Assembly: GCA_965552055.1 (NCBI GenBank)
Contig: CBEVQO010000001.1
Location: 32,001 to 96,000 of the forward strand
DNA from: an uncultured bacterium
GTDB taxonomy: Bacteria; Hydrothermota; UBA3073; NMUJ01; CBEVQO01
DNA length: 64,000 nt
Direction: 5' to 3'
Made by a program: the position numbers and the translations under genes. Positions 3,113 to 62,381 of this stretch are shown piece by piece (the stretch's first letter is position 1; every line of letters starts with the position of its first letter). The notes under the pieces were generated by a model. The model was given only the letters and a program-made list of their open reading frames with translations, did no database searches and was not told the DNA's origin.

Positions 3113-3139
3113 TTATTAACCATCCTGCTCCATTGTCAA
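3113..3139 (-). promoter_or_regulatory. Sigma70-type promoter, TTGACA-N15-TAATAA, apparently leaderless
   Basis: Read directly; -10 imperfect; ATGs 3 and 6 nt downstream. Confidence 0.5.
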
Positions 3140-3174
3140 GATAAAAATCGGCAAAAATTTATAAAAATTAACCC

Positions 3175-3201
3175 TTTACAATGTTATATTTTTCCTATAA
3201 T
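3175..3201 (+). promoter_or_regulatory. Promoter TTTACA-N15-TATAAT, leaderless
   Basis: TATAAT-ttaag-ATG(3207), no SD. Confidence 0.7.
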
Positions 3202-3206
3202 TTAAG

Positions 3207-4124
3207 ATGCGTTGCATTGTAACAGGAGGCGCTGGATTCATAGGATCACATTTAGTGGACGCTTTAATAGAGAGAGGTTATAAAGTTTTAATAATTGATG
3301 ATTTATCTACAGGTAAAGAAGAAAACATTAACAAAAAAGCGGAATTTGAAAAAATAAAAATCGAAGATGAAAAAATATTTGATATTTTAAAAAAATTCAA
3401 ACCAGATGCTGTGTTTCATTTCGCAGCTCAAATCGATGTAAGAAAATCTGTAAAAGACCCTCTTTTTGACACAAAAGTAAATGTGCTCGGTACTGTGAAT
3501 TTATTAAAAGCATCAGCTGATTGTAAAGTCAAATCTTTTATTTTTGCTTCTTCAGGTGGAGTTATTTATGGTGATGTTTTTGAACCTGCAAAAGAGAATC
3601 ATCCTGTAAATCCTCAATGTCCCTATGGTATCGCTAAATTATCGGGAGAATATTATGTGAAATTTTTTGGTAAAGAATATAGTTTCAAATGGGGTATTTT
3701 AAGATTTGCCAATGTTTATGGTCCCCGTCAGGACCCGAAGGGTGAAGCAGGAGTTTGTGCCATTTTCATCGGCAATATGATGAAAAAAAGACCTTGCAAA
3801 CTTTATGGATATGGTAAACTCGTTAGAGATTACATTTATGTCGAAGACGCTGTATCTTTAACTTTACAGGTTTTTGACAAAGGCGTATGCGATATTTTCA
3901 ATGCCGGAACAGGCAAAGGTACAAGTGTGATTGAACTTTTTAACATTTTAAAAGAATTTTTTGATTATAATATAGAGCCGATTCTTGAGGAAAAGCGTCC
4001 CGGCGAGCTGGAAAGTAATATTTTAAGTTATGAGAAAGCAAAAATATTACTTAATTGGAAACCTAAATATAGTTTAAAGGAAGGTCTCAAGAAAACTATT
4101 GAATGGTTTAAAAGAAGGTGCTAA
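3207..4124 (+). CDS. NAD-dependent epimerase/dehydratase (UDP-glucose 4-epimerase-like)
   Basis: TGGAGFIG, YGIAK (YxxxK), NVYGPRQDPKGEAGV. Confidence 0.92.
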   Translation: MRCIVTGGAGFIGSHLVDALIERGYKVLIIDDLSTGKEENINKKAEFEKIKIEDEKIFDILKKFKPDAVFHFAAQIDVRKSVKDPLFDTKVNVLGTVNLLKASADCKVKSFIFASSGGVIYGDVFEPAKENHPVNPQCPYGIAKLSGEYYVKFFGKEYSFKWGILRFANVYGPRQDPKGEAGVCAIFIGNMMKKRPCKLYGYGKLVRDYIYVEDAVSLTLQVFDKGVCDIFNAGTGKGTSVIELFNILKEFFDYNIEPILEEKRPGELESNILSYEKAKILLNWKPKYSLKEGLKKTIEWFKRRC

Positions 4125-4161
4125 AAAGTTATGTAATATTGATGATTTAGAAACGGGTCAT

Positions 4162-4204
4162 GGAGGGCGAAGCCCTCCGAAAAATCTGTGGGTGGGCGGG
4201 TGGG
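4162..4204 (+). repeat. GC hairpin plus G3 tract (REP-like element or terminator, with G-quadruplex motif)
   Basis: GGAGGGC-GAA-GCCCTCC at 4162-4178; GGGTGGGCGGGTGGG at 4190-4204. Confidence 0.55.
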
Positions 4205-4216
4205 ATAAAAATAAAG

Positions 4217-4243
4217 TTGACATTTTTGAAAAATGAGTATATT
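4217..4243 (+). promoter_or_regulatory. rnpB promoter TTGACA-N15-TATATT
   Basis: Ends 4 nt before the P1 5' strand of RNase P RNA. Confidence 0.75.
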
Positions 4244-4247
4244 AATT

Positions 4248-4521
4248 GAGTCGGGCAGGTGCGCTCGCCCGAAAGGGAGGAAAGTCCGGGCACCATGGTG
4301 GGCACCCGGGGTTAACCCGGGGGATGTGGCGCAATACACGCCACATCACGGAGAGTGCCACAGAGAGCAGTCAGCCCTTCGGGGCGATGGTGAAAGGGTG
4401 GGGTAAGAGCCCACCGGCCGGGCTGGAGACAGCCCGGTGCTCGGCAAACCCTGCCCGGTGCAAGGCGTTAGCCGCTTAGACGAATGAGCGCTAAACAGAA
4501 CCCGGCTTACCTGCCCGGCTC
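4248..4521 (+). ncRNA. rnpB: RNase P RNA (compact, type A-derived, 274 nt)
   Basis: GAGGAAAGTCCGGG and ACAGAACCCGGCTTA P4 motifs; P1 GAGTCGGGCAGG/CCTGCCCGGCTC; P2 GCGCTC/GAGCGC; AGTGCCACAGA and GGTGAAAGG/GGTAAGAG segments. Confidence 0.97.
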
Positions 4522-4531
4522 GTTTATTACT

Positions 4532-5020
4532 ATGAAAACCTTTATCTGTATCGGAACAAACATGGGAAATAAATTGGAAAACCTTAAAAAAGCTTTAAAA
4601 TTTCTACCAAATGTTAAAAGAATATCTCACATTTACGAATCAGAACCCCTTGGTCCTAAAAATCAACCTTATTTCCTGAATTGTGTTGCAGAAATTGACA
4701 CAAAGTTATCTCCAAGAGATTTACTCAGAATGTTAAAGTCAATCGAAAAAATCATGGGAAGGAAAGAAAAAAAGAGATGGGGACCCAGAATAATTGACCT
4801 TGATATCCTATTCTATGGAGATTTGATAATAAAAGAAAAAGATTTAATCATCCCTCATCCGGGAATTTCTGAACGCAAATTTTTCGTTTATCCTCTTTGC
4901 GACTTAATACCCGATTTTATACATCCTGAACTTAAAATAAAAATTTATGATTTAAAAAGGAGGCTTGATGCAAGTGGTTTTGAGTGTAAAAGATATGCAA
5001 GACCTTGCCTCCTCGTATAA
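4532..5020 (+). CDS. folK: 2-amino-4-hydroxy-6-hydroxymethyldihydropteridine diphosphokinase
   Basis: IGTNMG, QPYFLN, RWGPRIIDLDIL, PHP; start moved to ATG 4532 because ORF-track start 4484 lies inside rnpB. Confidence 0.95.
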   Translation: MKTFICIGTNMGNKLENLKKALKFLPNVKRISHIYESEPLGPKNQPYFLNCVAEIDTKLSPRDLLRMLKSIEKIMGRKEKKRWGPRIIDLDILFYGDLIIKEKDLIIPHPGISERKFFVYPLCDLIPDFIHPELKIKIYDLKRRLDASGFECKRYARPCLLV

Positions 5021-5831
5021 AAGAAGGGGGCAGAAAATCGGCTTTGTACCAACTATGGGATATTTACACGAAGGTCATCTATCACTTATAAGAATTGCAA
5101 AAAAAATGTCAGATGTCTGTGTCGTAAGTATTTTTGTAAATCCTTTGCAATTTGGTCCCAATGAAGATTTCAATGAATATCCAAGAGATTTAATGAGAGA
5201 TAAAGAATTACTCGAAAAGGAAGGTGTTGATATTTTATTTTTACCTGACGAAAGAGAAATGTATCCCATTGATTTTTGCACTTTTGTTGAAGTTGAAGGT
5301 TTGAGTGATGTCTTATGTGGCAAATACAGGCCTGGGCATTTTCGTGGTGTAACAACGGTTGTAGCAAAACTTTTCAACATAGTGAAACCTGACATTGCGG
5401 TATTTGGTGAAAAGGACGCTCAACAGGCAATAATAATAAAAAGAATGGTCAGGGATTTAAATTTTGATGTAAAAATAGTAACAGCACCTACTGTGAGAGA
5501 AGAAGATGGACTTGCCATGAGCTCAAGAAATACTTATTTAACACCCGAACAAAGAAAAGAAGCACCTGTGCTTTATAAATCACTTTTGCTGGCAAGAAAA
5601 TTAATCGAACAGGGAGAAAGAGACCCAGAAAAAATAAAAAAAGAAATGGAAAAAATGATAAAAGAGAATGCAAATTGTGAGATTCAATATATCGAGATTG
5701 TAAGAAAAGAAGATTTAAAACCTTTAGACAGAATCGAAGGCGAAGTTTTAATAGCGCTTGCTGCTAAATTCGGGAGGGCAAGATTAATAGACAACATAAC
5801 AGTAAAGGTAAATCAAGAAAAAGGAAGATAA
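4968..5831 (+). CDS. panC: Pantoate--beta-alanine ligase
   Basis: VPTMGYLHEGHLSL, FGEKDAQQ, GLAMSSRN, ARLIDN; GGAGG SD before ATG 4968. Confidence 0.97.
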   Translation: MQVVLSVKDMQDLASSYKRRGQKIGFVPTMGYLHEGHLSLIRIAKKMSDVCVVSIFVNPLQFGPNEDFNEYPRDLMRDKELLEKEGVDILFLPDEREMYPIDFCTFVEVEGLSDVLCGKYRPGHFRGVTTVVAKLFNIVKPDIAVFGEKDAQQAIIIKRMVRDLNFDVKIVTAPTVREEDGLAMSSRNTYLTPEQRKEAPVLYKSLLLARKLIEQGERDPEKIKKEMEKMIKENANCEIQYIEIVRKEDLKPLDRIEGEVLIALAAKFGRARLIDNITVKVNQEKGR

Positions 5832-6505
5832 TAGAAGATTTAATCTTCGTAATCGTAGTCGTTTTCTTTGTTCGTTCATTTATACTTGAATCTTATAGAA
5901 TACCTTCGGGCTCAATGGAAGATACGCTTTTAATTGGAGATTTTCTTTTTGCAACGAAATTTGACTATGGAATAAAAATACCTTTTACAAATATTTTTAT
6001 TGTGAGATGGCGTACACCCAGGAGAGGTGAGATTGTAATTTTTAAGTCACCTGTAGAATGGCGGACACTCGTGAAAAGGTGTGTGGCATTGCCGGGGGAT
6101 GTAGTTGAAATAAGAAACAAAGTTTTATATGTCAATGGAAAAGAAGTCAAAGAAGATTATGTAAAATACACAGATTCTAAGATTTTCCCTGGTATAAATA
6201 TGCCACATTTTACTTATCAAAGAGAATGGGAGGAACGTCGTTTTATTTATTATACTTCTCCTTTATCGAATCCGAGAGACAATTTTGGACCTGTTAGGGT
6301 GCCTCCCGATTGCATTTTTGTTTTAGGAGATAATCGTGATAATTCGTTTGATTCGAGATTCTGGGGACCTCTTCCCATTTCTCACCTGCTTGGCAGACCT
6401 CTTATCATCTGGTGGTCATGGGATGGCACAATTCCCTTATGGCATATAATTGACAAAATAAAGTCAATAAGATGGCGTAGAATTTTTAAAATAGTGAGGC
6501 AGTAA
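5783..6505 (+). CDS. lepB: Signal peptidase I (probable ATT start)
   Basis: In-frame extension upstream of ATG 5915 encodes the TM segment and YRIPSGSM; LVKRCVA, GDNRDNSFDSRFWG. The start coordinate is inferred. Confidence 0.9.
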   Translation: MNRQHNSKGKSRKRKIIEDLIFVIVVVFFVRSFILESYRIPSGSMEDTLLIGDFLFATKFDYGIKIPFTNIFIVRWRTPRRGEIVIFKSPVEWRTLVKRCVALPGDVVEIRNKVLYVNGKEVKEDYVKYTDSKIFPGINMPHFTYQREWEERRFIYYTSPLSNPRDNFGPVRVPPDCIFVLGDNRDNSFDSRFWGPLPISHLLGRPLIIWWSWDGTIPLWHIIDKIKSIRWRRIFKIVRQ

Positions 6506-6723
6506 TGTGCCTCGGGATACCTGTTAAAATAGTCGAAATAAAAGGCGATATTGCAATTGTAGAGTCTGAAGGCGTCAGAAGAGAAGCCGTTATTACTTTC
6601 ATTGATAACCCTAAAGTTGGCGATTATGTCATTTTACATGCAGGTTTTGCCATACAGAAAATCGATGAAAAAGAAGCAAAAGAAACATTAAAACTTTTAA
6701 AAGAACTGGAAAAATGGAAGTAA
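6505..6723 (+). CDS. hypC: Hydrogenase maturation chaperone HypC/HybG/HupF
   Basis: MCLGIP N-terminus; VGDYVILHAGFAI. Confidence 0.95.
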   Translation: MCLGIPVKIVEIKGDIAIVESEGVRREAVITFIDNPKVGDYVILHAGFAIQKIDEKEAKETLKLLKELEKWK

Positions 6724-8111
6724 AAGTAACCATTGGTCTTGAAATACATGCCCAGCTTCTTACACATTCGAAGCTTTTTTGTTCGTGTCCTGTAACCTAT
6801 GATGCACCGCCCAATACTGCTGTTTGCCCTGTTTGCCTCGGCATGCCCGGCACTTTACCTGTGTTAAACCAGCGTGCAGTTGAATTCGCAGTAAAAGCAG
6901 CACTCGCTTTGAATTGTAAAGTAGAAAAAATATCAATTTTCGCAAGAAAAAATTATTTTTATCCAGACCTACCAAAGGGCTATCAAATAACCCAGTATGA
7001 TAAGCCACTTGCACATTCTGGATACCTTGAAGTAAATGGCAAAAAAATAAGAATAAGGAGATTACATTTAGAAGAAGAATCGGGAAAATTAATTCACACA
7101 GGAAATGAAGTGTTGATTGATTTTAACAGATGTGGAATACCTTTGATTGAAATTGTTACAGAACCCGATATTTCTTCACCCGAAGAAGCTGTTTTATTCA
7201 TGGAAAAGCTTCGTCGTATTTTGCGCTACATAGGGGTATGTGGCGGAGATATGGAAAAAGGACAAATAAGATGCGAACCTAATTTATCTATTGAAGTGAA
7301 CGGTAAAGTATCGCCCCGCAGAGAAATTAAAAACTTAAATTCTTTAAGAGCAGTTGAACGCGCTTTAAAATATGAAATCGAAAACTTAAAAAACGCAATT
7401 TTAAAAGGAATAGAACTTCATCAGGCAACACTTGGCTGGGATGAGAGATTATCGAAAACATTTGAAATGAGAGAAAAAGAAACATCAGCAGATTATAGAT
7501 ATTTCCCGGAACCAGACCTGCCACCACTTGTAATATCAGAGAAATTAATCGAAAAAATAAAAAAAGAAATACCAGAATTACCCGATGTAAGAAAGGAAAG
7601 GATGATTAAAGAATATCAAATAGATGTGAAGACAGCAGAAATACTTGTGGAAGAAAAAGAAATTGCAGATTATTTTGAAGAAACGGCAAAAAATTTTAAA
7701 GATTTCAGAATGTTAAGCAACTTCATTATAACCGAAGTTTTGCGAATCTTAAATGAGAAAAAGATAAAAATATGTGATTTAAAAACAAAACCCTCTGATT
7801 TAGCAAAACTGTTGAAGAATGTAAAAGATGGCAAAATAAATTTGTTATCCGCAAAGAGAATCTTTATGGATATCGAAGAGAAAGGCATAGCTTTAGAAGA
7901 TATTTTGAAAGAGAAAGAAAAAATCACAGATGAAGCAGAAATCGAAAAAATATTAAAAGAAATAATAGAAAACAGTCCAGAGCAGGTTAAAAAATATAAA
8001 TCAGGTAAAAAAGGAGTGATTGGCTATTTTATTGGTGAACTTATGCGAAAAACAAAAGGCAGAGCCGACCCCAAAATCGCAAATAAAATTCTAATAAAAC
8101 TGTTAGAGTAA
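6714..8111 (+). CDS. gatB: Asp/Glu-tRNA amidotransferase subunit B
   Basis: IGLEIHAQL, RKNYFYPDLPKGYQITQ, DYRYFPEPDLPP. Confidence 0.97.
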   Translation: MEVKVTIGLEIHAQLLTHSKLFCSCPVTYDAPPNTAVCPVCLGMPGTLPVLNQRAVEFAVKAALALNCKVEKISIFARKNYFYPDLPKGYQITQYDKPLAHSGYLEVNGKKIRIRRLHLEEESGKLIHTGNEVLIDFNRCGIPLIEIVTEPDISSPEEAVLFMEKLRRILRYIGVCGGDMEKGQIRCEPNLSIEVNGKVSPRREIKNLNSLRAVERALKYEIENLKNAILKGIELHQATLGWDERLSKTFEMREKETSADYRYFPEPDLPPLVISEKLIEKIKKEIPELPDVRKERMIKEYQIDVKTAEILVEEKEIADYFEETAKNFKDFRMLSNFIITEVLRILNEKKIKICDLKTKPSDLAKLLKNVKDGKINLLSAKRIFMDIEEKGIALEDILKEKEKITDEAEIEKILKEIIENSPEQVKKYKSGKKGVIGYFIGELMRKTKGRADPKIANKILIKLLE

Positions 8112-8113
8112 AT

Positions 8114-14702
<6,589 letters not shown>

Positions 14703-15108
14703 CTCGCTCAGTTTTACCTATTTCGCCTTCTTCAAAAGAAACTTCAAGAACCTTTGAAAAAACAATTTGCGCTATCCTCATTCCTTTTTCAATTTTAAAT
14801 TTCTCTTTCCCAAAATTAAAAAGGATAACTTTTATTTCTCCCCTGTAATCTGGGTCTATTGTGCCCGGAGAATTCAATAGCCCTATCCCATATTTTGCAG
14901 CAAGACCACTCCTTGGTCGGACTTGTGCTTCAACATCGTTTGGAAGTTCTATCGCAATACCACATGAAACAACTGCATATTCACCTGGATTTAAAATCTT
15001 CTCTTCGACAGAAAAAAGGTCATAGCCGGCGGAATAAGGGGTTGCTCTTACAGGAATTTTTGCATCGGGGCAAAGTTTCTTAATCCGTATTTTTATCATT
15101 CATAATAG

Positions 15109-15180
15109 CGGCCCCAGCGGGAGTCGAACCCGCGCTTTTGGCTTGAAAAGCCAATGTCCTAACCGCTAGACGATGGGGCC
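15109..15180 (-). tRNA. tRNA-Glu(TTC), CCA not encoded
   Basis: Acceptor GGCCCCA/TGGGGCC; anticodon arm TTGGC-TTTTCAA-GCCAA; GGTTCGACTCC T arm; discriminator G followed by CTA. Confidence 0.95.
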
Positions 15181-15187
15181 TCCACTT

Positions 15188-15214
15188 ATATTATCCAAAA
15201 TGCCAGTTTGTCAA
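15188..15214 (-). promoter_or_regulatory. tRNA-Glu/dut promoter TTGACA-N15-TAATAT
   Basis: Read directly; ends 7 nt before the mature tRNA 5' end. Confidence 0.7.
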
Positions 15215-15223
15215 GCTCAAATT

Positions 15224-16057: not shown

Positions 16058-16074
16058 TTTACCCTCCTTCAAAT

Positions 16075-16101
16075 ATTATAATCCAAATTTTAAAAAGTCA
16101 A
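16075..16101 (-). promoter_or_regulatory. Promoter TTGACT-N15-TATAAT
   Basis: Read directly; followed by SD and ATG 16057. Confidence 0.75.
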
Positions 16102-16130
16102 ATAATTTTATACGATTCTTGCTTAATATA

Positions 16131-20092: not shown

Positions 20093-20100
20093 TAGAGCCC

Positions 20101-26083: not shown

Positions 26084-26110
26084 ATTTTAATCACTTTTTG
26101 TGGATGTCAA
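26084..26110 (-). promoter_or_regulatory. hsp20-lon promoter TTGACA-N15-TAAAAT, leaderless
   Basis: TAAAAT-aattg-ATG(26078), no SD. Confidence 0.75.
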
Positions 26111-32295: not shown

Positions 32296-32323
32296 ATTAT
32301 AATCAAAATTACAGATTTGTCAA
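32296..32323 (-). promoter_or_regulatory. Promoter TTGACA-N16-TATAAT of the ino1-tmk-ctpA-pyrRB-era unit
   Basis: Read directly; the only 16-bp spacer found. Confidence 0.75.
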
Positions 32324-38349: not shown

Positions 38350-38413
38350 ATTAAAATCAAAATCCCATTTTGTCAAGAAAAAATTCTTGACATTTTAAAA
38401 TTTTGATTTTAAT
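38350..38413. promoter_or_regulatory. Back-to-back promoters, each TTGACA-N15-TTTAAT
   Basis: TGTCAA 38371-38376 and TTGACA 38387-38392; neither downstream gene has an SD. Confidence 0.65.
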
Positions 38414-43061: not shown

Positions 43062-43528
43062 GGCGCAAAAACAAGTGCAACAACTCCACAAACCCAAGTA
43101 TCCACACCTTCTATCTCTATTCCCTCTGTCTTCTCCATTATATCTTTCTCATCAATTCCTTCATAAATTGCTTTTAACATCTCCTTTGCACAAATGGAAG
43201 ACCTTTCTTTTGCTTCTTTTAAAGATTTTGCCTTATACTCGGCTACACAGCCAACTTTGTCACTTTCCTTGAGATAAGCAACAGAAAGTGCTATCGCAGA
43301 TTTCTCACCTTTTCTGCAATAATCTTCAATCATAACACAATGAACGATGCTACCAGGAGATAGACTAAATATAGCATTGCCTTTCTCCACAATCTCGCAT
43401 CCAGGCGGTAAAATGCTCGTTACCTTTACAAGATTAAATTTCTCAATACCAGCAGATTTCAAAGCATTATGGAATGCAACTATCTTTTCCACATGCATGC
43501 CCACACCTTTGGTTAAAAAAGCTTTCAC
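43058..43528 (-). CDS. pdaD: Pyruvoyl-dependent arginine decarboxylase-like proenzyme
   Basis: AFLTKGVG, ALKSAGIEKFNLVKVTSILPP (Thr-Ser cleavage site), VAEY. Confidence 0.8.
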   Translation of the reverse strand: MKAFLTKGVGMHVEKIVAFHNALKSAGIEKFNLVKVTSILPPGCEIVEKGNAIFSLSPGSIVHCVMIEDYCRKGEKSAIALSVAYLKESDKVGCVAEYKAKSLKEAKERSSICAKEMLKAIYEGIDEKDIMEKTEGIEIEGVDTWVCGVVALVFAP

Positions 43529-43533: not shown

Positions 43534-43599
43534 ATAATATCCAAAATACATCTTTGTCAACAAAAAATCTTGACAAAACAAAAATTTTATTAATAAAAT
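43534..43599. promoter_or_regulatory. Back-to-back promoters: minus TTGACA-N15-TATTAT (leaderless GTG); plus TTGACA-N15-TAATAA or N18-TAAAAT
   Basis: TGTCAA 43555-43560, TTGACA 43570-43575. Confidence 0.7.
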
Positions 43600-48502: not shown

Positions 48503-48503
48503 C

Positions 48504-49319
48504 TCAACCTCCAATTTCCAAACTAAAATTTATTGATTTAAATGAATGTGTCAGCATCCCAATAGATATAAAATTTACTCCTGTTTTCGCATAATCCCTT
48601 ATATTGGAAAGATTTATGCCACCAGAAACTTCAAGTTCAAATGCTCCTTTCACGATATCAACAGCCCTTTTAACCTCATCTACGCTCATATTATCGAGCA
48701 AAACTCTATCAATCTTATCACTGTATTTTAAAGCAAATGTAAGCTCCTCGAGATTTTTTACTTCAACTATTACTTTATAATTTCTCTTTTCGGGTATTTT
48801 CTTTAGTGCCTCTTCAATTCCGCCGAGCGATGAAATATGATTGTCTTTTATCATCATAGCATCATATAGACCCATCCTGTGATTTTCCCCTCCTCCTACT
48901 TTCACCGCATATTTTTCCAATTCTCTTAGACAGGGAGTGGTTTTCCTTGTATCGAGTATTTTAACATTCAAATCTTCCACCTTTTCTACAAATTGTCTCG
49001 TAAGTGTTGCTATCCCCGATAATCTCATCAAAAAATTAAGAGCTGTTCTTTCTGCTTTCAAAATAGATGCTACCCTGCCGTGAAGAGTAGCAACGGGTTC
49101 CTCGGGTAAAATTTTTTCTCCGTCCTCTCTTAAAGGATTAAAAATAACCTCTTTATCAACCTCTTTAAAAACTTTCTCGCAAACTTTAATTCCACAGAGA
49201 ATGCATTCTTCCTTACAAATTATATAAGCATCTTTTACAAGATTTTTTGGTATAAGAGTATCTGTTGTAATATCACCTTTTCCAATATCTTCCTCAAGGG
49301 CTCTTTTTATTACATCCAC
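48504..49319 (-). CDS. nadC: Quinolinate phosphoribosyltransferase
   Basis: ALEEDIGKGDITT, DTRKTTP, HRMGL, KDNH, LLDNM, VSGGI. Confidence 0.97.
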   Translation of the reverse strand: MDVIKRALEEDIGKGDITTDTLIPKNLVKDAYIICKEECILCGIKVCEKVFKEVDKEVIFNPLREDGEKILPEEPVATLHGRVASILKAERTALNFLMRLSGIATLTRQFVEKVEDLNVKILDTRKTTPCLRELEKYAVKVGGGENHRMGLYDAMMIKDNHISSLGGIEEALKKIPEKRNYKVIVEVKNLEELTFALKYSDKIDRVLLDNMSVDEVKRAVDIVKGAFELEVSGGINLSNIRDYAKTGVNFISIGMLTHSFKSINFSLEIGG

Positions 49320-49324
49320 TTATT

Positions 49325-49351
49325 ATTTTAATCAAATATTTTCTTTGTCAA
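49325..49351 (-). promoter_or_regulatory. nadC promoter TTGACA-N15-TAAAAT, leaderless
   Basis: TAAAAT-aataa-GTG(49319), no SD. Confidence 0.75.
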
Positions 49352-49352
49352 C

Positions 49353-49567
49353 TTTAAGTGTTATAATTTTTAGCCCCGCCTCCCAATCCCCGCCTTCCCA
49401 TGTGCACACCCCTCCTTTCAGTCGGGGTGTGACAAAAGACCCATTGGTAATGAGCTCGGCTACGCCTCGCAATAAAAATTATGAGCAAAGCATCTTAGAA
49501 AGCCACATCTTGGTCAAGGCTGTGCCTTGCTCGCTTCGCTCGTAATAAATTTAAGGTGTTATAATTT
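49353..49567. repeat. Structured ~200-bp element bounded by near-identical direct repeats
   Basis: TTTAAGTGTTATAATTT (49353-49369) and TTTAAGGTGTTATAATTT (49550-49567); internal hairpins and two REP-like GCTCG..CGC.TCG.AATAAA units. Confidence 0.55.
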
Positions 49568-49639
49568 CTATCGCGCTTACTATTTGCCCATTTTCTATTT
49601 TCCAAACCTCGTAATTTGCTACCAATCTCAATAATTTTA

Positions 49640-49666
49640 TTGACAAAAACCGATTTTCTTTATATT
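49640..49666 (+). promoter_or_regulatory. Promoter TTGACA-N15-TATATT
   Basis: Read directly; followed by AAGGAGG and ATG 49684. Confidence 0.75.
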
Positions 49667-49683
49667 TAGAGAAGGAGGGGAGA

Positions 49684-50367: not shown

Positions 50368-50379
50368 AAAGGAGGGGAA

Positions 50380-51765: not shown

Positions 51766-52280
51766 AAGAATTACTCTTGACTTTTTTAAAAATTGGATTA
51801 ATAGGATATGGTGGTGGGAATGCTGTTTTCCGTGTATTACTATCAGAAGTTGTCGAAAAGAAAGGCTGGTTTACGCTTCCAGAAATCGTTAATATGTTCT
51901 CATTAGCCCAAACAGCACCAGGTTTGATAATACCAAAGCTCGCTGTAATCTGTGGATATAAAAAAGCAGGGATACCCGGAGCAATTGTAAGTTTCTTTGC
52001 AGTAAATTTACCGGGAATTATAATTTGCATGGCAATATTTGCAATTTACTGGAAATACGGTAAACATCCCGTTTTCAATCGTATCCTATGCGGAATAAAA
52101 CCCATAGTAGCTGCACTCGTATTTTCAGCTTTTCTAATGATATTTAAAGGCGGAAATTTGCTTAATTGGAAATCAATTTTGATTTTCTGCGGTGCACTCG
52201 TAATGTTAATAGCATTTAAGATTCATCCTTTATGGTTAATCATTGCCGGAATTTGTTTAGGTTTATTGATATTTAAATAG
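51762..52280 (+). CDS. Short-chain chromate transporter (CHR family)
   Basis: [35 protein letters not shown]. Confidence 0.88.
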
Positions 52281-52288
52281 GAGACAAA

Positions 52289-53500
52289 ATGAATGAATTC
52301 AAATTTAATACAATTGAAGAAGCTATAGAAGACATAAAATCGGGTAAAATGGTAATATGTGTAGATGATGAAGATAGAGAAAACGAAGGCGATTTCATAA
52401 TGGCGGCAGAAAAAGTTACTCCTCAGGATATAAACTTTATGACAAAGGAAGGAAGAGGACTTATTTGTGTTGCGCTTCCTCGTAAACGCCTTGAAGAGTT
52501 GCAAATACCGCTTATGGTGCCACACAATACAGCGCTACACGAGACAGCATTCACGGTCACCGTTGATTACAAAATAGGGACAACAACAGGTAGCAGTGCA
52601 TTTGACAGGGCAAAAACGATAAAAGCACTCTGTGACCCAAATGCAAAACCCGAAGATTTTGCACGCCCAGGACATGTTTTCCCATTATGCGTAGTAGAAG
52701 GAGGAGTTTTACGCAGAGCAGGGCACACAGAAGCCGCCCATGACCTTGCAAAACTGGCAGGATTGTATCCAGCAGGTGTTCTATGCGAAATACTGGACGA
52801 CGACGGACATATGGCAAGAGTACCAAAATTAATGAAAATAGCAAAAAAATTCGGACTAAAAATAATAACAATAAAAGATTTAATCGAATACAGAAGAAAA
52901 AGAGAAAAATTGGTGGAAAGAATTGTTGAAACTGTCTTACCCACGGTTTATGGGGAATTCAAGCTTTATCTTTATGAGGATGTGATAACGAAAGAGCATC
53001 ATGTTGCTCTTGTTATGGGAGAAGTAAAAGGTAAACAAAATGTTTTGGTAAGGGTGCATTCTCAGTGTTTAACTGGTGATGTTTTTGGCTCTTTGCGTTG
53101 CGATTGCAGATACCAACTTGAAAAGTCAATGGAGATGATAGCAAAAGAAGGTCAGGGAGTTTTACTCTATATGCGTCAGGAAGGAAGAGGAATTGGTTTA
53201 AAAGACAAATTAAGAGCTTATGAATTGCAGGATAAAGGTTATGATACTGTGGAAGCAAACTTAAAGTTAGGAAAGCCGCCTGATTTAAGGGATTATGGAA
53301 TAGGTGCACAAATCCTGTGCGACCTGGGACTATCAACAATAAGATTGATAACCAATAATCCAAAAAAGATTGTAGGATTAGAAGGTCATGGATTAAAAGT
53401 AGTGGAGAGGGTGCCAATAGAGGCACCCCCCAACAGGTTCAATCGCCGCTATCTACTTACAAAGAAAACCAAATTAGGACATCTCATAAACATCGATTGA
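52289..53500 (+). CDS. ribBA: Bifunctional DHBP synthase / GTP cyclohydrolase II
   Basis: [33 protein letters not shown]...[18 protein letters not shown]. Confidence 0.97.
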
Positions 53501-56500: not shown

Positions 56501-56725
56501 ATCATACGCCATAACATACCAGTAATGCAAACCTTCAAGATTCAATGTCTCTGTTACTGTGGTATCACCCGTTATCCCTATCGTAGTATCATCAATCCTC
56601 AGTGCGTAAATATCTGCCTGAGCATCCGTCCATACGAATGTCACAACCTTATTTGTCCATGCAGTGTCTGCTGGCTTCACAAGATTAAAAGGCATCAACC
56701 CTATCAACACAATCAACACACCCAT
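53501..56725 (-). CDS. Large exported protein of tandem FN3/Ig-like repeats with T9SS-type C-terminal domain
   Basis: About 8-9 repeats D.T.P..P.L.SP...W...Y...W.V.A.D.AGN; YPNPV...DITGREV...GIYFV...KILVTK. Confidence 0.8.
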   Translation of the reverse strand: MGVLIVLIGLMPFNLVKPADTAWTNKVVTFVWTDAQADIYALRIDDTTIGITGDTTVTETLNLEGLHYWYVMAYDTVLRDSLSSDTFVIRIDTTAPDTAVLRQPAPGVVIDSTQILFAWSNEQDAGSPVYYNLEIAKNDTLNIILDTILSDTQIVLVLSEGLFYWRVWTLDSVGNWNSWSGSYFWIDTSPPSSFSLISPDSVWLNDTMVTFVWHSSYDAGVGLKYYVLVVDGNYDTVGLDTVYTKKVSEGWHDWYVIAIDNADKSTCSNTLLFGVDITIPPSPSMVSPADNETLYSYPTLFIWNSVTDAPSGLMYYELVVKSISDSYKIHTLDTIYTLTLTQTGIWVWTVRAYDKAGNASTIANIWRFNLDDTIAPSVPQLVSPDDGGYSNDGRLVWRSSTDDLTGVSYYVVDYSTDPTFAIKDSGTTVDTEFIIPDLQEATYYWRVYAVDGAGNRSGYSSVWSFSVDTVPPGVPSLISPVNGAYINTPPTLVWTSAGDNAGIAGYEVEIYSFDGGYAETAFVLNDTTCVVVPQIDADFVWHVRAVDLAGNRGEWSEKWGFVYDTKPPATPLPSFPKDVRLNDTIVVFRWYLGSEAKGGVTPVDYIIEVYTDSGLTSLLHIDTVEVNYDTVKLLQPYSEYWWRVKAMDEAGNESDWSTLVHFVLDTLWAAGVGTDSPIGAFNTSSVKFVWRFSQPWYAPGTLQGFELKVVAVYPPVGISSDEFSSMSAIVDTVLPAGQTQCVITLPDSEYFWSVRAWNTSGKCTPWADIRHFKIDTKAPPAPALVYPEDGGVIGDTNVKLECQNVEELETGYHSVLFYVFVVSDDPNFMSIIRCDTVKHWYYTYVKLTEEKTYYWKARAFDEAGNVGPWSVTYSFTLDLTKPTVTSYTVLSDTTYPGPFWVKVVAVDNCGVDSAKLIYRASIYPVWIPVAMMKEDKSTFKALIPKQDPNTTVEYYFVVKDVVGNKVTFPDTPIRFTIKPLALVATKPVSYELQGVYPNPVRDNLVIKYALPEESRVRITLCDITGREVKELLNIIQSAGRYTYNVKKLDLAGGIYFVKFQAGNYTKSEKILVTK

Positions 56726-56745
56726 ACTCCCCCCTAACTTCTTTT

Positions 56746-56833
56746 ATTTAAATCATCATCCAAATTTGTCAAGAAAAAATTTTTAAAAATTTTTAAAAAT
56801 TTATAATTGACACTTCCACAATAAAATTAAATT
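56746..56833. promoter_or_regulatory. Divergent promoters: minus TTGACA-N15-TTAAAT; plus TTGACA-N15-TAAATT; A5T5 tandem between them
   Basis: TGTCAA 56767-56772, TTGACA 56807-56812. Confidence 0.65.
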
Positions 56834-56841
56834 TATTTCAG

Positions 56842-57693
56842 GTGATACCTTATTGGATAAAAGAAAAAAAGAAAATCTCAACGCAAGAATATAAAAAGAT
56901 AAAAGGAATGCTGGAAAATTATGGCTTGCACACTGTTTGTCAGGAGGCCCGCTGTCCAAATATCTATGAGTGCTTCAAAAGTGGAACAGCTACTTTCTTA
57001 ATACTCGGTAATATCTGTACGAGAAATTGCAGATTCTGTGCTATAAAAAAGGGAGTGCCTCAGAAAGTTGACCCCCTTGAGCCCAACAAAGTTGCGGATT
57101 GCATTTATAAAATGGGTATTGATTTTGCAGTTATAACATCTGTAACAAGGGACGATTTAGAAAATGGAGGAGCTTCTCATTTTGTAAAAACGATGAAAAA
57201 AATAAGGGAAAAGAAAAAAGATATCAAAATCGAAATACTCATACCAGATTTTAAAGGAAATATGGATGCTTTAAATCTATTACTGGAAGAAAAGCCAGAT
57301 GTGTTAAATCACAATGTAGAAACTATTAAAAGATTATATCCAGAAGTAAGACCCCTTGCAAATTATGAATTGTCATTAAAAATTTTAAAATTTTTTGCCG
57401 ATAATAGCATCATCACAAAATCAGGATTCATGGTTGGACTTGGAGAAACATTAGACGAAATAATTAAATTAATGGAAGATTTAAGGGAAGCAGGGGTGCA
57501 AATTTTAACGATTGGACAGTATCTTCGCCCTACGATGCATCATTTACCTGTAAAAAAATACTACCACCCTGATGAATTTGAAAAGCTAAAAGAAATTGCA
57601 TATAATATCGGATTTAAATTCGTGGTATCGGGTCCCTTTGTTCGCAGTTCTTATCGTGCAAAGGAGGCTTATTTTTCCTGCTCAACTATCTGA
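56842..57693 (+). CDS. lipA: Lipoyl synthase
   Basis: CQEARCPNIYEC, CTRNCRFC, VRSSYRA. Confidence 0.97.
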   Translation: MIPYWIKEKKKISTQEYKKIKGMLENYGLHTVCQEARCPNIYECFKSGTATFLILGNICTRNCRFCAIKKGVPQKVDPLEPNKVADCIYKMGIDFAVITSVTRDDLENGGASHFVKTMKKIREKKKDIKIEILIPDFKGNMDALNLLLEEKPDVLNHNVETIKRLYPEVRPLANYELSLKILKFFADNSIITKSGFMVGLGETLDEIIKLMEDLREAGVQILTIGQYLRPTMHHLPVKKYYHPDEFEKLKEIAYNIGFKFVVSGPFVRSSYRAKEAYFSCSTI

Positions 57694-58319
57694 ACGCCAG
57701 CAGAAGTACCCAAGCGTTCTGCACCCAGTTCTATTAACTTTTTAGCAAATTCAAATGTCCTTATACCACCCGATGCTTTTATCTTTCCCCGCGTTCCTAT
57801 TGCTTCTCTTATCAATTTAACATCTTCTTCTGTTACTCCCCTCTTACCGAAACCCGTACATGTTTTCACAAAATCAGCACCTGCATTTATACACAATTTT
57901 GCCGCAGTTTTTATTTCTTCAGGGGTAAGCAATGGTGTTTCAATTATCACTTTTAAAATTTTATCTTCAATCTCTTTCTTCATCTCCTTTATTTCTCTCT
58001 CCACATATTTGTAATCTTTGTCTTTAAAAGCACCTATATTCATCACCATATCAATTTCCTCTGCACCATCTTCAACTGCTCTTACAGCTTCTTCCACCTT
58101 AATCTGTGTTTTTGATGCTCCAAGCGGGAAACCCACCACACTACATACAAATGTGGGTTCATCAGCGAGAAGGTCGGAAACATATTTCACCCAATAGGGA
58201 TTCACGCAACAACCATAAAACTTATACTTCTTACATTCTTCTATCAACCTGTCTATATCTTCGCGTTTAGCCTCCGGCTTCAACAATGTATGGTCAATGT
58301 ATTTTGCTATGCCCATCAT
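57669..58319 (-). CDS. deoC: Deoxyribose-phosphate aldolase
   Basis: IDHTLLKP, VVGFPLG, EIDMV, KVIIET, FVKTCTGF, KASGGIR. Confidence 0.97.
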   Translation of the reverse strand: MMGIAKYIDHTLLKPEAKREDIDRLIEECKKYKFYGCCVNPYWVKYVSDLLADEPTFVCSVVGFPLGASKTQIKVEEAVRAVEDGAEEIDMVMNIGAFKDKDYKYVEREIKEMKKEIEDKILKVIIETPLLTPEEIKTAAKLCINAGADFVKTCTGFGKRGVTEEDVKLIREAIGTRGKIKASGGIRTFEFAKKLIELGAERLGTSAGVQIVEQEK

Positions 58320-59754
58320 TTTGCCTCTCCTTCAAACCTCCCAGAATGTTTTCAAGTTTTTTACATTCCTCCAGAAATTCTTCTTTCTTCACCAATTTAA
58401 ATCTTCTTTTGAAACTCGCATAAAGAGCTTCGTCCTGTGGTATTTTCCTTAACTCGTTGTATGCTCTTTGTAAAAATAGCTTCGCTAATTTTTTATCTTT
58501 CCATTGTTTCCAAATAGCGGCTGCCATAAACAAATATGTATCTGCCTTGTTATTCGGCAATGTCAAAACATCAAGGTAATTTTCTGTTATTTCTAAAACT
58601 TTTGATTTCTCTTTCTCTTTTTCTATCATCCAACCTGCTTCCATTAAAAGGTCTTCCAGTGTTTTCTCACCTGTCTCCAGTGCAAATTTCCATCTCCATA
58701 ATGTTGCACGCCTTTTATCCACACCAACATCTATAGCTTTTGTCATACATTCGCCTGCCTTATCATAATCGCCCTTATTGTAATGCAAGATGCCGAGGTC
58801 TATCCACAAATCCTCATTCCTTGGCTCTATCGCAAGTGCTTCTTCAAGCAATGACTCTGCTTTCCTCATATAAAGGTCGGGATTAACACCATCAAGTGCC
58901 AGCTGCTGATAGCACACCGAAAGCATAGAAAGAGCTGTTGTAATGCCCTCTCTGCCGAGCAATATCTTTTGCAAAACATCAATCGCTTCCTCTATCTGCA
59001 TCCTGTAAAAATAAGTTCCTGCAATTTCAAGACCGAGCCATGTATTTAAATAATCTCTCTCAAATATCTCCCTGAATCTGCTTCTACGAGAAATAAGGTC
59101 TTTTCGCAATTCATTAACCTGTCCCCAGTAATATAACCCCTGATAATATTTCACTTCATATACAAAATCAGGACGGGATACACCTTTGAAAGTTACTTCG
59201 TAGGGCTCTGACCACGCAACCTTTATCCCGTATCTCACTGCCTCCTGATAAGCGCTCCTACTTGCCATCACAAGCGTATATAAACCTTTATCACCGCCAG
59301 TACCTTCAACTCTTTTTGCAAGATTTATAGCATAGCCCTCCGGACGGGCAGTTTTCTCAAATATATCCTGCAAAATCATAACTTCTCCTGTATTTATCCC
59401 GATTTTTATCTCGGTAGGTCTTTTACCCGATTCTATCCTCGCAGTATTAAAATCACTTATAAGCCAGCGCAATTTAAGCTCCCGTGCAATACCAAGTGCA
59501 AGCATTAATTTCTCACCAAGTGTTAATTCATCAGAATAAATTATTATGCAAACTTCATCGCCCCTTGTCTGATAAAAACAATCTTTAACGCATTTTTTCC
59601 TCCTTTTTAAATGCCTGTTTACAACATCATAAACAAGTCTTTGAAACGGCTCAATTATGTAATCACAGAATTCACGCAAAGATAAATTGTTAGCAAGTTC
59701 CGTAGAATTAACTAAATCCGCAAAAAGTATGACTGCTTCCTTTATTGCACTCAT
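58294..59754 (-). CDS. Class III nucleotide cyclase with C-terminal TPR repeats
   Basis: ILFADLVNST, RGDEV, KIGINTG, GYAINLAKRVE, FKGV; TPR helices. Confidence 0.85.
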   Translation of the reverse strand: MSAIKEAVILFADLVNSTELANNLSLREFCDYIIEPFQRLVYDVVNRHLKRRKKCVKDCFYQTRGDEVCIIIYSDELTLGEKLMLALGIARELKLRWLISDFNTARIESGKRPTEIKIGINTGEVMILQDIFEKTARPEGYAINLAKRVEGTGGDKGLYTLVMASRSAYQEAVRYGIKVAWSEPYEVTFKGVSRPDFVYEVKYYQGLYYWGQVNELRKDLISRRSRFREIFERDYLNTWLGLEIAGTYFYRMQIEEAIDVLQKILLGREGITTALSMLSVCYQQLALDGVNPDLYMRKAESLLEEALAIEPRNEDLWIDLGILHYNKGDYDKAGECMTKAIDVGVDKRRATLWRWKFALETGEKTLEDLLMEAGWMIEKEKEKSKVLEITENYLDVLTLPNNKADTYLFMAAAIWKQWKDKKLAKLFLQRAYNELRKIPQDEALYASFKRRFKLVKKEEFLEECKKLENILGGLKERQNDGHSKIH

Positions 59755-62288
59755 CAGAATATCGGAAAGCCAGCAGATACCGAGAAAGTTCTCTTCTCTT
59801 CGTCAGGCAATTCTATTTTGCCATCACCATCTTTATCGATATATGTTATTCTCCACTCAAATGTTAAGCAAACATTGGGTGATAACGCATACTCTATTCT
59901 TATTCCTTTCAAAGTATTTTCAGAGCGTTTGAATAACTCGAAGGGATGCTTCACCTGTCGTTGAATAAGATACGCTTCTGCAAAGTTTATCCTTTTTATT
60001 TTCTTCGTAAACTTGGCACTTAAGTAAAGGTCACCGTATTTTCCTTCTTTTAAATCATGGAAATACTCTCCTGATAAAATCAGAATGTTACCCACCTTTC
60101 CACTCAAACCAGCAAATATGCCATAAATACCCGGAACATCATCGAGCGTGCTTTCTCTGGTAACAAAATTGACAATGGTATCTCCTGAAGTATCAACTTC
60201 TTCTTTTATCATCACTTTGTTCAACTCATACATTCTATCAAAATATCCAAACTGGAATTTTTCCTGCGTCCATCTTAACTCTGCTTTCGCAGTAATTACG
60301 GGAAGCCTGAGAAGCACACCAACAGGCACTATTCCCATTCCTTTTCCCCATATTTTATCAATCTCGGAATACAACTTGAGTAAAGGTTTCTTTAAAAGCA
60401 CAAATCCTACATCCACACCTGTTAACAAAACCCAGTCTCTTCCGGGTATTCTAAAAGGTGTCCTCACGGTGTCTATCCTTGGGTCCCTTGGTAATCTCAC
60501 GGTATCGCTGTCCTGCACAAAACAATAAAAACTATCACAGGGAAAACCTATTGTATCGCTTTCCAGAATATAATAGTTGTCGAAATAATTATCGTTATCC
60601 CTATCGATGTCTATTTTATCAGGGATCCCATCTTTATCCGAATCTTTATAATATTTTTCATCTTCGGGAAAGGCGTCAACGATGTCTGGAAAACCATCTC
60701 CATCGGCATCCGAAAGTGCAGAATATTGGTTTATATCACCCGCAATCGTTACTCCGACTCTCAAATTCTTAAGTAAAAGAGGATAAGAAATCCTTAAAGC
60801 AAAAAAGGAAGGATTGCCAAGGTCACCTACTGTAAATTTCCAGAAAAGTCCCTTTTGTAAACCGCCAAAAAGAAGACCTGTCCTTTTCACATCAGGATAA
60901 TCTTCGCAGTTAGAATAATCGTTCACAATTAAACCTGCTCCATAACTTACAGAAGGAAGAGCACCTATTTGGAAGAAAATTTTTTCCCTCTCTTCACCGT
61001 ATCTTACATAATATATTTTATTAGTATAAGTGCTCAATTTCTTCCAATCCCAGTCTTCTTTTCTGATGTGTCCTTCCTTATCAAAATAAAGAGGAATATC
61101 AAGTGCTATTTTAAATTTACCGAAAGGAATAACTGGATGCAATCTTATCGATTGATACAACTCACCTTCGATTAATGCAGAGCCCACCTGTGCATCCATA
61201 GAAAAAGGTCTCTTTGCGGGAGCTTTTCCAACTTTTTCTTCTTTTTTCTCTTCAATCTTTCCTTCAATCTTTCCTTCTTCAATTTCTCTTTCTTCTTTCT
61301 TTTTCTCTTTCTTCTTAATCTTTAAGCCCAATTTTCTTTTTATGTAATTTATCTCTGATGCTTTCATTTTCACAGGTGGTGTCGGTGCTTCTCCCTTTCT
61401 CACCGTTGTTTTCTCACCCGGTTTTAGAATAACAGAAGGTCTGCCCGGTATTTTCATTGCTATAACTTCTACTTTGCCTTCAACAACACCCACAACTGTC
61501 TTCTGGTCGGCTCCTACTTTTGTCATAAAAATAGTGCCCCTTACACCTGCGACCGCAATTTCAGAGCGTATTTCGAACAAATCCCTCCCTTCTTTAAATT
61601 TCTTAACATGAGATATAACTTTTCCAAGTAAATTCTTAAAATTAACAGTTTGTGCACCTGTTGATGTATCATAGATTAAAACATTCAATTTAAGTCTTGT
61701 ATTTTCCAGTAATTTTACAACATCGCCATTCGGAAGTGTAATTTCTGCTTCGGATTCAATACTCGTCATAACTTCATCACCCATTTTAAGTCCCATATTC
61801 AGTTTCGCAGGTTGCCATTTCTCTTCACCTGCTCTCTTAACCTTCACATCACCCAGTATGAAAGTAAGTTTTGCTATTGAGCGGACAGATGGAGATTTAG
61901 ATGAAGATTTTACACCGCTTTCTTTGCCCTTCTTTCTGATGCCCGAAGCAACAATCCTGGCACTATCGGGAAGCATCTCATCCCTTCCTTTGCTTAGTAT
62001 TTTTATCATTTTTTTAATGGTAGATTCCGAGACATTTCTTTTAAGAGAATCGATAAGCTCTTTTGTGATTTCAACCTCTTTATTTTCCCCGATTTTTATT
62101 ATCCTTTCACCATATTTCAACTCGGCTTCCGATTCTTTATATGTCCTTATTTTATCCCCCACCATCAATGACATCCCTATTTTTGCTGGAATCACTTTGC
62201 CTGACTTCTCAACCTCCACCTTACCCAATACGAAATGTATACGCAAAACAGGCTCCACCACAAGCAAAAATATCAACAGCCCAGCCAT
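59754..62288 (-). CDS. Tandem FecR-domain protein fused to a probable beta-barrel with TSP3-like Ca-binding repeats
   Basis: Two G.V.V...L..GD.I.T...S.A.. units, AVAGVRGT; DADGDGFPDIVDAFP and DSDKDGIPD; C-terminal Phe; GGAGG-N5-ATG 62288. Confidence 0.75.
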   Translation of the reverse strand: MAGLLIFLLVVEPVLRIHFVLGKVEVEKSGKVIPAKIGMSLMVGDKIRTYKESEAELKYGERIIKIGENKEVEITKELIDSLKRNVSESTIKKMIKILSKGRDEMLPDSARIVASGIRKKGKESGVKSSSKSPSVRSIAKLTFILGDVKVKRAGEEKWQPAKLNMGLKMGDEVMTSIESEAEITLPNGDVVKLLENTRLKLNVLIYDTSTGAQTVNFKNLLGKVISHVKKFKEGRDLFEIRSEIAVAGVRGTIFMTKVGADQKTVVGVVEGKVEVIAMKIPGRPSVILKPGEKTTVRKGEAPTPPVKMKASEINYIKRKLGLKIKKKEKKKEEREIEEGKIEGKIEEKKEEKVGKAPAKRPFSMDAQVGSALIEGELYQSIRLHPVIPFGKFKIALDIPLYFDKEGHIRKEDWDWKKLSTYTNKIYYVRYGEEREKIFFQIGALPSVSYGAGLIVNDYSNCEDYPDVKRTGLLFGGLQKGLFWKFTVGDLGNPSFFALRISYPLLLKNLRVGVTIAGDINQYSALSDADGDGFPDIVDAFPEDEKYYKDSDKDGIPDKIDIDRDNDNYFDNYYILESDTIGFPCDSFYCFVQDSDTVRLPRDPRIDTVRTPFRIPGRDWVLLTGVDVGFVLLKKPLLKLYSEIDKIWGKGMGIVPVGVLLRLPVITAKAELRWTQEKFQFGYFDRMYELNKVMIKEEVDTSGDTIVNFVTRESTLDDVPGIYGIFAGLSGKVGNILILSGEYFHDLKEGKYGDLYLSAKFTKKIKRINFAEAYLIQRQVKHPFELFKRSENTLKGIRIEYALSPNVCLTFEWRITYIDKDGDGKIELPDEEKRTFSVSAGFPIF

Positions 62289-62307
62289 AATACCCTCCGA
62301 TTTATTA

Positions 62308-62381
62308 TTTATAAGCAATAAAAGAATTTGTCAAGTATAACATCCAAATTTTTGTTGACAAATTAGCTTTTTATTTAAAAT
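62308..62381. promoter_or_regulatory. Divergent promoters: minus TTGACA-N15-TATAAA; plus TTGACA-N15-TAAAAT
   Basis: TGTCAA 62329-62334, TTGACA 62355-62360. Confidence 0.7.

Follow-up and report, generated by a model that had tools for sequence, protein, structure and literature searches.

The spacer between the -35 and -10 hexamers of bacterial housekeeping promoters is usually regarded as fixed at 17±1 base pairs (bp) by how far apart sigma2 and sigma4 sit on the core RNA polymerase. In the available text of two surveys, mainly 17-bp spacers are predicted over 49 species (Kuo 2025, PMC12641261), and the ProFinder preprint (bioRxiv 10.64898/2026.09.23.753901) gives a median of 17 for each of its 49 genomes, with 99.2% of spacers within 16-18, and concludes from a domain-wide scan gated at 16-18 that the canonical spacer holds across bacteria. 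Annotated promoters of Escherichia coli have spacers of 15-21 bp, 17 being the commonest length, and native 15-bp cases exist (PMC8695583, in its accessible part). Our literature search, with most subscription papers outside its coverage, returned no primary sigma factor with a 15-bp mode and nothing on the promoters or sigma factors of candidate division WOR-3. Here we analyze the promoters of a 64-kb window (the whole stretch studied, positions 32001-96000 of contig C1) in the genome of an uncultured bacterium (G000), and of that genome as a whole, in which textbook hexamers stand 15 bp apart.

This promoter class works like that of sigma70 but departs from it in its spacer and in its extended -10 element. 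With the canonical sigma70/sigmaA promoters of E. coli, Bacillus subtilis and the 49-species panel it shares both hexamers, the housekeeping RNA genes and a distance of 5-6 nucleotides (nt) from -10 to start, and the RpoD of this genome likewise has the tryptophan (W) dyad, Q437, R451, H455 and a canonical 4.2 helix; here, however, the mode is 15 with almost no true 17, a spacer TG lies at -16/-15, and R441, V454 and E458 are replaced. A short count between the named boxes is also known from sigmaB of Staphylococcus aureus (about 14 bp; PMC11156646), in which, according to the available part of that report, a different -10 sequence is read partly as duplex with the sigma domains in place; in contrast, the boxes here are canonical, the genes are housekeeping genes, and the distance from -35 to start is itself about 3 nt shorter, as judged by proxies. 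The twist model (PMC9303308, as far as its accessible text goes) holds that relaxed or overwound DNA favors short spacers, and the topoisomerase set found here predicts such DNA, but the model describes regulation among the promoters of one species around 17 bp and reaches about 16, whereas here the mode of a whole genome has shifted.

Two further lineages bear a partial likeness to this organism, one through its sigma factor and one through its topoisomerases. Bacteroidota have a distinctive primary sigma factor with -33/-7 promoters, and Aquifex, like the organism studied here, has reverse gyrase. The sister family of this genome is Bacteroidota-like in that its short sigma factor, which has no region 1.1, appears to be primary and in that its -10 hexamer ends in TT; unlike Bacteroidota, this genome retains a complete RpoD together with TAwAAT, and TTGACA is kept in both families. 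The thermophile Aquifex aeolicus has one GyrA/GyrB pair without a canonical GyrA box (PMC2647321, available part), and this genome too has a single pair, with no GyrA box; the loss here is an independent one, within WOR-3.

Promoter spacing and register across the genome

An earlier note on the window, made from its letters, had listed promoters with a 15-bp spacer and proposed a genome-wide gapped search, in which the spacer histogram peaks at 15 and not at 17-18. The genome comprises 2.23 Mb in 15 contigs and is 97% complete; we treated as intergenic everything outside a crude mask of 1931 open reading frames (ORFs) of at least 100 amino acids. Among 492 intergenic TTGACA hexamers, TAnnnT follows at spacers 14, 15, 16, 17 and 18 in 7, 288, 44, 59 and 24 cases, respectively, and 41 of the 59 matches at 17 coincide with a match at 15; 200 composition shuffles gave 27±5 matches at spacer 15, with a maximum of 40. 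The stricter TAWAAT occurs at spacers 14-18 in 5, 190, 34, 9 and 3 cases, a distribution (190, 34 and 9 at 15, 16 and 17) unlike the canonical 17±1. Exact TATAAT, counted across all 1818 TTGACA sites of the genome, is found 121 times at 15, 27 times at 16 and 7 times at 17, and the reversed-pattern control matches once (1 vs 121). The shuffles and the reversed patterns rule out chance and AT bias.

Hundreds of gene starts carry textbook boxes 15 bases apart: a same-strand ORF start lies within -150 to +200 of 226 of the 253 TTGACA-N15-TAWAAT sites. The -35 hexamer is TTGACA itself, as single-base variants lose most of the 15-bp signal, and the full consensus consists of an A-tract, cTTGACA, a spacer that is first A-rich and then T-rich and ends in tGAT, and TAwAAT. 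TGAT, an ending that the earlier note had seen often, is the commonest one (56 of 407 AT-rich 15-bp sites, the set used in all counts out of 407 below). TG stands at -16/-15 in 124/407 and at the classic extended -10 position, -15/-14, in 17/407, so that the canonical extended -10 is not a feature of this class. Both rRNA promoters have a spacer of 15, and gene position (rRNA, tRNA and RNase P) assigns the class a housekeeping role. Two metagenome contigs of 99.3% identity carry identical 15-bp sites, and in a third (80% identity over 981 nt) the sequence of the spacer has changed and its length of 15 is kept; an assembly artifact is ruled out by these contigs. Taken together, 15 bp is almost certainly the functional spacing in this genome.

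The register of transcription, approached through sequence proxies, agrees with this spacing, with starts at the positions expected for a 15-bp register and not further downstream. Leaderless starts, tRNA genes, RNase P RNA and the rRNA promoters place the transcription start about 26 nt past the -35 box, with 5-6 nt between the -10 and the inferred start, which argues that the shortening is real and not a misread register. Start codons of long ORFs lie 5 nt past the -10 at 113/407 sites and 6 nt past it at 45/407, and such leaderless-type starts are frequent genome-wide (158/407 15-bp promoters with a codon 5-6 nt past the -10); in Shine-Dalgarno (SD)-led genes the leader is short, at about 12 nt. 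Positions are numbered along the spacer so that the conserved T16, A17 and T21 correspond to -12, -11 and -7. When sites were anchored on TTGACA and a long-ORF start codon, with no filter on the -10, the codon peaked at position 27 (132 sites, with 75 at 28 and 25 at 30), and those 132 sites have T16 in 95%, A17 in 95% and T21 in 89%. Conversely, anchoring on TAWAAT-N5-RTG with no filter on the -35 recovered TTGAC at spacer 15 in 86 of 113 cases, at 16 in 10 and at 17 in 0. The RNase P RNA has its 5' end at position 26, upstream of the start in a 17-bp register (position 30); of 26 tRNA and transfer-messenger RNA (tmRNA) genes near a TTGACA, 20 fit 15 and 4 fit 17, and 10 begin at positions 27-29. 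The start-codon peak tracks the spacer mode in relatives, at 28-29 in the 16-bp genome G017 and at 29 in the 17-bp genome G055 (small samples, 173-175 kb).

Within the window, the coordinates and strands of all 17 promoters in the earlier note hold, as do its TAnnnT at spacer 15 in 10 of the 17, its six near-match -10 hexamers, its single 16-nt spacer and its three sites that also fit a 17 register (3175, 16101 and 38387). Exact TTGACA occurs 49 times in the window, followed by TAnnnT at 15 in 9 cases and at 17 in 1. Two of the sites head stable RNA genes: TTGACA-N15-TATATT (4217..4243, + strand) stands before the class A RNase P RNA (4248..4525, +; RF00010, model positions 1-367), and TTGACA-N15-TAATAT (15188..15214, -) before tRNA-Glu(TTC) (15108..15180, -), whose 5' end is at spacer position 29.

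Three candidates for leaderless genes match their family profiles from residues 1-4. TTTACA-N15-TATAAT (3175..3201, +) has an ATG at 3207, 5 nt past the -10, that starts a likely leaderless GalE-like epimerase (+; match from residue 1); TTGACA-N15-TATTAT (43534..43560, -) has a GTG at 43528, also 5 nt past the -10, for a likely leaderless pyruvoyl-dependent arginine decarboxylase (-; from residue 1); and TTGACA-N15-TAAAAT (49325..49351, -) has a GTG at 49319, again at 5 nt, for a likely leaderless nadC (-; from residue 4). The near match TTGACA-N15-TAATAA at 3113..3139 (-), with an ATG at spacer position 25 or 28, is likely leaderless as well, and TTGACA-N15-TAAAAT at 26084..26110 (-), with an in-frame ATG 5 nt past the -10, heads a run of ORFs that includes lon. 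SD-led genes follow TTGACT-N15-TATAAT (16075..16101, -) and TTGACA-N15-TATATT (49640..49666, +). The 16-bp exception, TTGACA-N16-TATAAT (32296..32323, -), lies upstream of inositol-3-phosphate synthase.

The near match TTGACA-N15-TTTAAT serves V-type ATPase subunit A (38350..38376, -) and recurs in its divergent partner (38387..38413, +); another near match, TTGACA-N15-TAATAA (43570..43596, +), belongs to htpX, and TTGACA-N15-TAAATT (56807..56833, +) to lipA. The remaining sites are the near matches TTGACA-N15-TTAAAT (56746..56772, -) and TTGACA-N15-TATAAA (62308..62334, -) and a TTGACA-N15-TAAAAT (62355..62381, +). Five divergent pairs (3113-3201, 38350-38413, 43534-43596, 56746-56833 and 62308-62381) are arranged back to back with their -35 boxes 9-35 nt apart. 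The window also encodes a 1423-amino-acid protein (10431-14702, -) with a weak match to the type IX secretion sortase PorU domain (79 bits, cut-off 420).

The organism and the spread of spacer modes in its phylum

The nearest relatives of the RpoD are only 53% identical, the few named ones including candidate division WOR-3, and the protein clusters of phylum relatives are labeled mostly WOR-3 or TA06. A reverse gyrase and an IVYWREL fraction of 0.43, which we take to correspond to about 69°C, suggest that the organism is probably a thermophile. This genome and its sister family (G001, G070 and G105; L042-L047, L056, L057; 99, 87 and 66% complete) form one RpoB clade (SH-aLRT 98 in a quick tree of 21).

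The short spacing is specific to this lineage, as the repeat of the search in related genomes proposed by the earlier note makes clear. This genome has 261 copies of TTGACA-N15-TANAAT, and none of 150 other phylum genomes has more than 17; for TTGACA-N15-TAWWTT, counted in 242 genomes, it reaches 73 and two sister-family genomes reach 54 and 38, the next highest count being 16. We counted spacers 15, 16 and 17 in 54 phylum genomes (18 only locally and in 5 relatives), in which modes from low counts are uncertain: the mode is 17 in 24 and 16 in another 24, one is tied between 16 and 17, three have their mode at 15, all of this order, and two are tied between 15 and 16 (G001, which belongs to this order, and G008, with low counts). 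A clear 15-bp mode is thus restricted, among the WOR-3 examined, to this order of four genomes. G055, from family f4 in the class of this genome, serves as a mirror control with a strict 17 (15/16/17 counts of 3/7/277), and G017 (6/249/21) and G066 (4/260/30) are strict-16 relatives. A search of genome contigs for related loci gave only 4 distant sigma factors; a viral scan gave 24 single matches, none with a convincing second 15-bp promoter, and a metagenome scan gave 54 loci, mostly single matches, which demonstrate no further 15-bp lineage.

Remodeling of RpoD recurs within the phylum. A WOR-3 clade of G017, G066, G076, G061, G144 and G003 (L048-L052, L027) has a 16-bp mode, of up to 260 sites vs 30 at 17, and an RpoD with V454A and E458D. 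Two further WOR-3 families, represented by G011 (L035) and G126 (L034), have a strongly diverged RpoD (248-253 bits) that carries R441K and lacks E458, and both are of 16 mode.

Sigma factors, core polymerase and DNA topology

Five genes with a sigma70 region 2 are present in the genome. RpoD (G000:C7, L002:490-2217), a protein of 575 amino acids encoded behind dnaG, has regions 1.1, 1.2, 2, 3 and 4, with regions 2.3 and 4.2 intact; by eye, its N terminus appears to have two tandem region 1.1-like segments, of which Pfam scores one. It falls below the NCBIfam cut-off (TIGR02393, 284.8 bits vs 354), as do 20 of 28 phylum genomes. The invariant W433, W434, Q437, R451 and H455 are kept as W392, W393, Q396, R410 and H414, and the equivalents of R441, V454 and E458, located by their offset from the W dyad, are K400, P413 and N417. 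These three residues are 100% conserved in 1002 primary sigmas and read T-15/G-14 in the Taq open complex, in which the zipper Tyr/Arg is at -17 (Bae 2015, PMC4593229, in its available part); in our outside homologues, R441 is found in 119/119, V or I at 454 in 119/119 and E458 in 118/119. The replacement of the -15/-14 readers matches the rarity of TG at -15/-14 and its abundance one position upstream. In relatives, spacer TG takes the classic form TRTG in the 17-bp G055 (23 sites) and stands as T-16 G-15 in the 16-bp G017 (37 sites).

Divergence of this RpoD peaks at the junction of regions 2.4 and 3.0, where the match to the consensus is 0.42 vs 0.82±0.08 in 27 relatives (z about -5), and region 4.2 is normal (0.77 vs 0.81). 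The protein as a whole lies on an accelerated branch (mean identity of 0.48 vs 0.53-0.63), with a faster rate than RpoB, RpoC and the short sigma. In the phylum, all 8 other RpoDs without E458 belong to 16-mode genomes, and 12 of the 12 17-mode genomes examined keep it.

The earlier note had named the sigma3 linker, the beta flap and the beta' zipper as places where the polymerase might have changed. In the zipper, an Arg is replaced by Lys solely in this genome among 22. That Arg contacts -17 (PMC3173786, accessible part), and a Glu near it is replaced by Asp across the order (four genomes), as well as in three 16-bp genomes. Neither a flap indel nor a shortened sigma3.2 linker is present to act as the ruler: the beta flap is without an indel, its one Lys-to-Arg change being shared with the sister family and the 16-bp G144, and RpoD has lost 1 residue in sigma3 and gained 2 in sigma3.2 through separate single-residue insertions, so that this linker, which is also less acidic, is longer and not shorter.

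A second candidate reader, the short sigma (about 265-275 amino acids), lies here within an operon behind a DegP-like protease (annotation by eye) and keeps the W dyad and an RERVRQ helix. In the sister family, four different queries found no RpoD in 3/3 genomes, which are incomplete assemblies, and there is no rpoD behind dnaG; its detectable sigmas are a 275-amino-acid sigma with a strong ribosome-binding site, which seems to be the sole primary-like sigma, and one extracytoplasmic function (ECF) sigma. Across 721 kb of the sister genome G001, TAnnTT stands at 15, 16 and 17 in 40, 18 and 5 cases, and the GyrA box of the sister family is intact. The rpoB and rpoC genes are unlinked in G001 and G070.

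DNA topology, absent from the interpretation in the earlier note, differs here as well. The gene for GyrA, the only one in the genome, lies about 2.4 kb ahead of the window (G000:C1:27269-29566), and that for reverse gyrase on another contig (G000:C4:82901-86113). A deletion of 9 residues has removed the GyrA box from this protein (TIGR01063, 816.9 bits vs 877), whereas 22 of 25 relatives have a box of the QxRGG type; GyrB is present, and there is a single type II topoisomerase. Loss of the box is proposed for Aquifex to turn gyrase topo IV-like (PMC2647321), and in E. coli relaxation favors 15-nt spacers (PMC9303308). From the twist model, as given in the available text, we computed an optimum of 16 at a superhelical density (sigma) of about 0 and of 15 at +0.065, with a tie of 15 and 16 near +0.03, so that topology could, on this modeling, supply about one base pair of the shift. 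The chromosome is probably relaxed or slightly overwound, to judge from its topoisomerase genes, and a reverse gyrase combined with a GyrA lacking its box may in this way help the short spacing. Aquifex offers little comparison here: its plasmid, taken as a topology control, has only 20 TTGACA sites, too few for a spacer mode, and the available part of PMC4227106 contains no spacer data. In three other genomes, G078, G088 and G032 (L194-L196), the GyrA box is degenerate and TTGACA promoters are very scarce at all spacers of 15-18.

What may set the spacing and what it means

The explanation we favor, and on balance consider probable, is that an RpoD holoenzyme with a re-tuned grip on the spacer reads cTTGACA-N15-TAwAAT, with relaxed DNA as a probable aid. 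The reader would be RpoD rather than the short sigma, since the -10 hexamer matches that of RpoD-bearing relatives and the DNA-reading core of RpoD is intact. Loss of the -15/-14 anchor would free the duplex beside -12 for a new path, the sigma4-flap module would shift, and sigma4 would then likely reach the -35 box two base pairs early; a relaxed or overwound chromosome would move the optimum from 17 to about 16 and leave about one base pair to the protein. As a different sigma goes with 15/16 in the sister family, part of the ruler would predate this genome.

Several observations weigh against this explanation. The acceleration of RpoD would also result from decay; the core polymerase substitutions common to both 15-bp families are few, conservative and also found in 16-bp genomes; among 21 genomes with E458 retained, 9 are of 16 or mixed mode; and kin are not independent, the E458 pattern amounting by eye to about three origins. 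The sister family, with no RpoD detected and an intact GyrA box, still ranks 15>16>17, so that neither the RpoD changes nor the loss in GyrA is required. The earlier note had attributed the spacing to an altered geometry of the primary sigma and polymerase: the 15-bp grammar is real and lineage specific, and sigma and polymerase are changed at the surface that grips the spacer, but a single primary-sigma cause is incomplete, as 15/16 is kept in the sister family without a detectable RpoD and RpoD alone is not the ruler. For that family, either the ruler lies partly in the core, or a successor sigma has adapted to the spacing that it inherited, or both families read their promoters with the short sigma.

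The last of these options extends to an account for the whole order, which we consider unlikely, in which the short sigma or the shared core sets the ruler and RpoD is being displaced here and has already been lost in the sister family. It would fit a family in which only a short sigma and one ECF sigma are detectable and the peak is still 15, the union of both families in one RpoB clade, the retention of the W dyad and RERVRQ helix in the short sigma, and the acceleration of RpoD but not of the short sigma. Against it, the -10 differs between the families (TAwAAT here as in RpoD-bearing relatives, TAwwTT in the sister family), and the RpoD of this genome is full length, sits behind dnaG, has intact regions 2.3 and 4.2 and diverges locally; moreover, the short sigma is inside the protease operon here, and its shortened linker is also found in 16- and 17-mode relatives.

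A mainly topological origin is rather improbable; in this account reverse gyrase, in a cell that has no working gyrase, would yield relaxed or positive DNA, on which a nearly ordinary polymerase would prefer shorter spacers. The presence of reverse gyrase, a deleted GyrA box where 22/25 relatives have one, the proposed topo IV-like conversion and the effect of relaxation in E. coli (PMC2647321 and PMC9303308, available parts) speak for it, as does a peak at 15 that is sharper here than in the sister family (190:34 vs 40:18, on different -10 patterns). However, the model requires a superhelical density of about +0.065 for an optimum of 15 and only ties 15 with 16 near +0.03. Reverse gyrase alone is rejected as the cause by its other carriers, as five of six other WOR-3 reverse-gyrase genomes are of 17 mode (three on low counts) and one of 16 mode, and G078 and G088, with reverse gyrase and degenerate boxes, show no short bias (low counts). 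Since, in addition, the sister family keeps its box and still has 15/16, and G017 and G066 are strongly 16 with the box intact, ordinary gyrase and no reverse gyrase, topology is not the general cause.

Very unlikely, in our view, is an accessory factor that acts at every housekeeping promoter, by remodeling a conventional holoenzyme or by bending the spacer: one common factor would cover 15/16 in two families with different sigmas and would suit the conserved A-tract/T-tract profile of the spacer, but 16- and 17-mode relatives have the same profile, and PF02559 finds no CarD in the four genomes of the order, only Mfd-length matches (order-specific unknown proteins were not searched). Least probable of all is an apparent shift of the kind invoked for the roughly 14-bp spacer of S. 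aureus sigmaB (PMC11156646, accessible part), in which the first TA would be read as duplex, melting would begin two bases downstream and the true geometry would be 17, for although the RpoD changes cluster in the same region (2.4/3.0), a 17-bp promoter would start at position 30, inside RNAs and codons, when the start codon is most often at 27, the RNase P RNA has its 5' end at 26 and 10/26 tRNA and tmRNA genes have theirs at 27-29, and T16, A17 and T21 reproduce -12, -11 and -7 with position 23 at background.

Most promoters of this organism escape any promoter finder that admits only spacers of 16-18 bp. A complete 15-bp housekeeping set, with natural controls of strict 16 (G017) and strict 17 (G055), opens the question of how the spacer is measured to swaps from a short list of candidates, and protein geometry is separable here from DNA twist, since negative supercoiling has probably been lost in this genome and probably not in its sister family. 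Tentatively, the ruler may well be an evolvable lineage trait that within WOR-3 has gone from a strict 17 by way of a strict 16 to 15, with a primary sigma and core whose intrinsic optimum of 15 bp would depend on a small set of residues, at sigma2.4/3.0 and in the beta' zipper. Such an enzyme would be a near-orthogonal tool, with an orthogonality that is partial at best because 15-bp spacers also occur in native promoters of E. coli (PMC8695583, accessible part). For the organism itself, an intrinsic 15-bp optimum would leave housekeeping transcription largely blind to 17-bp promoters and would thereby raise a barrier to foreign genes.

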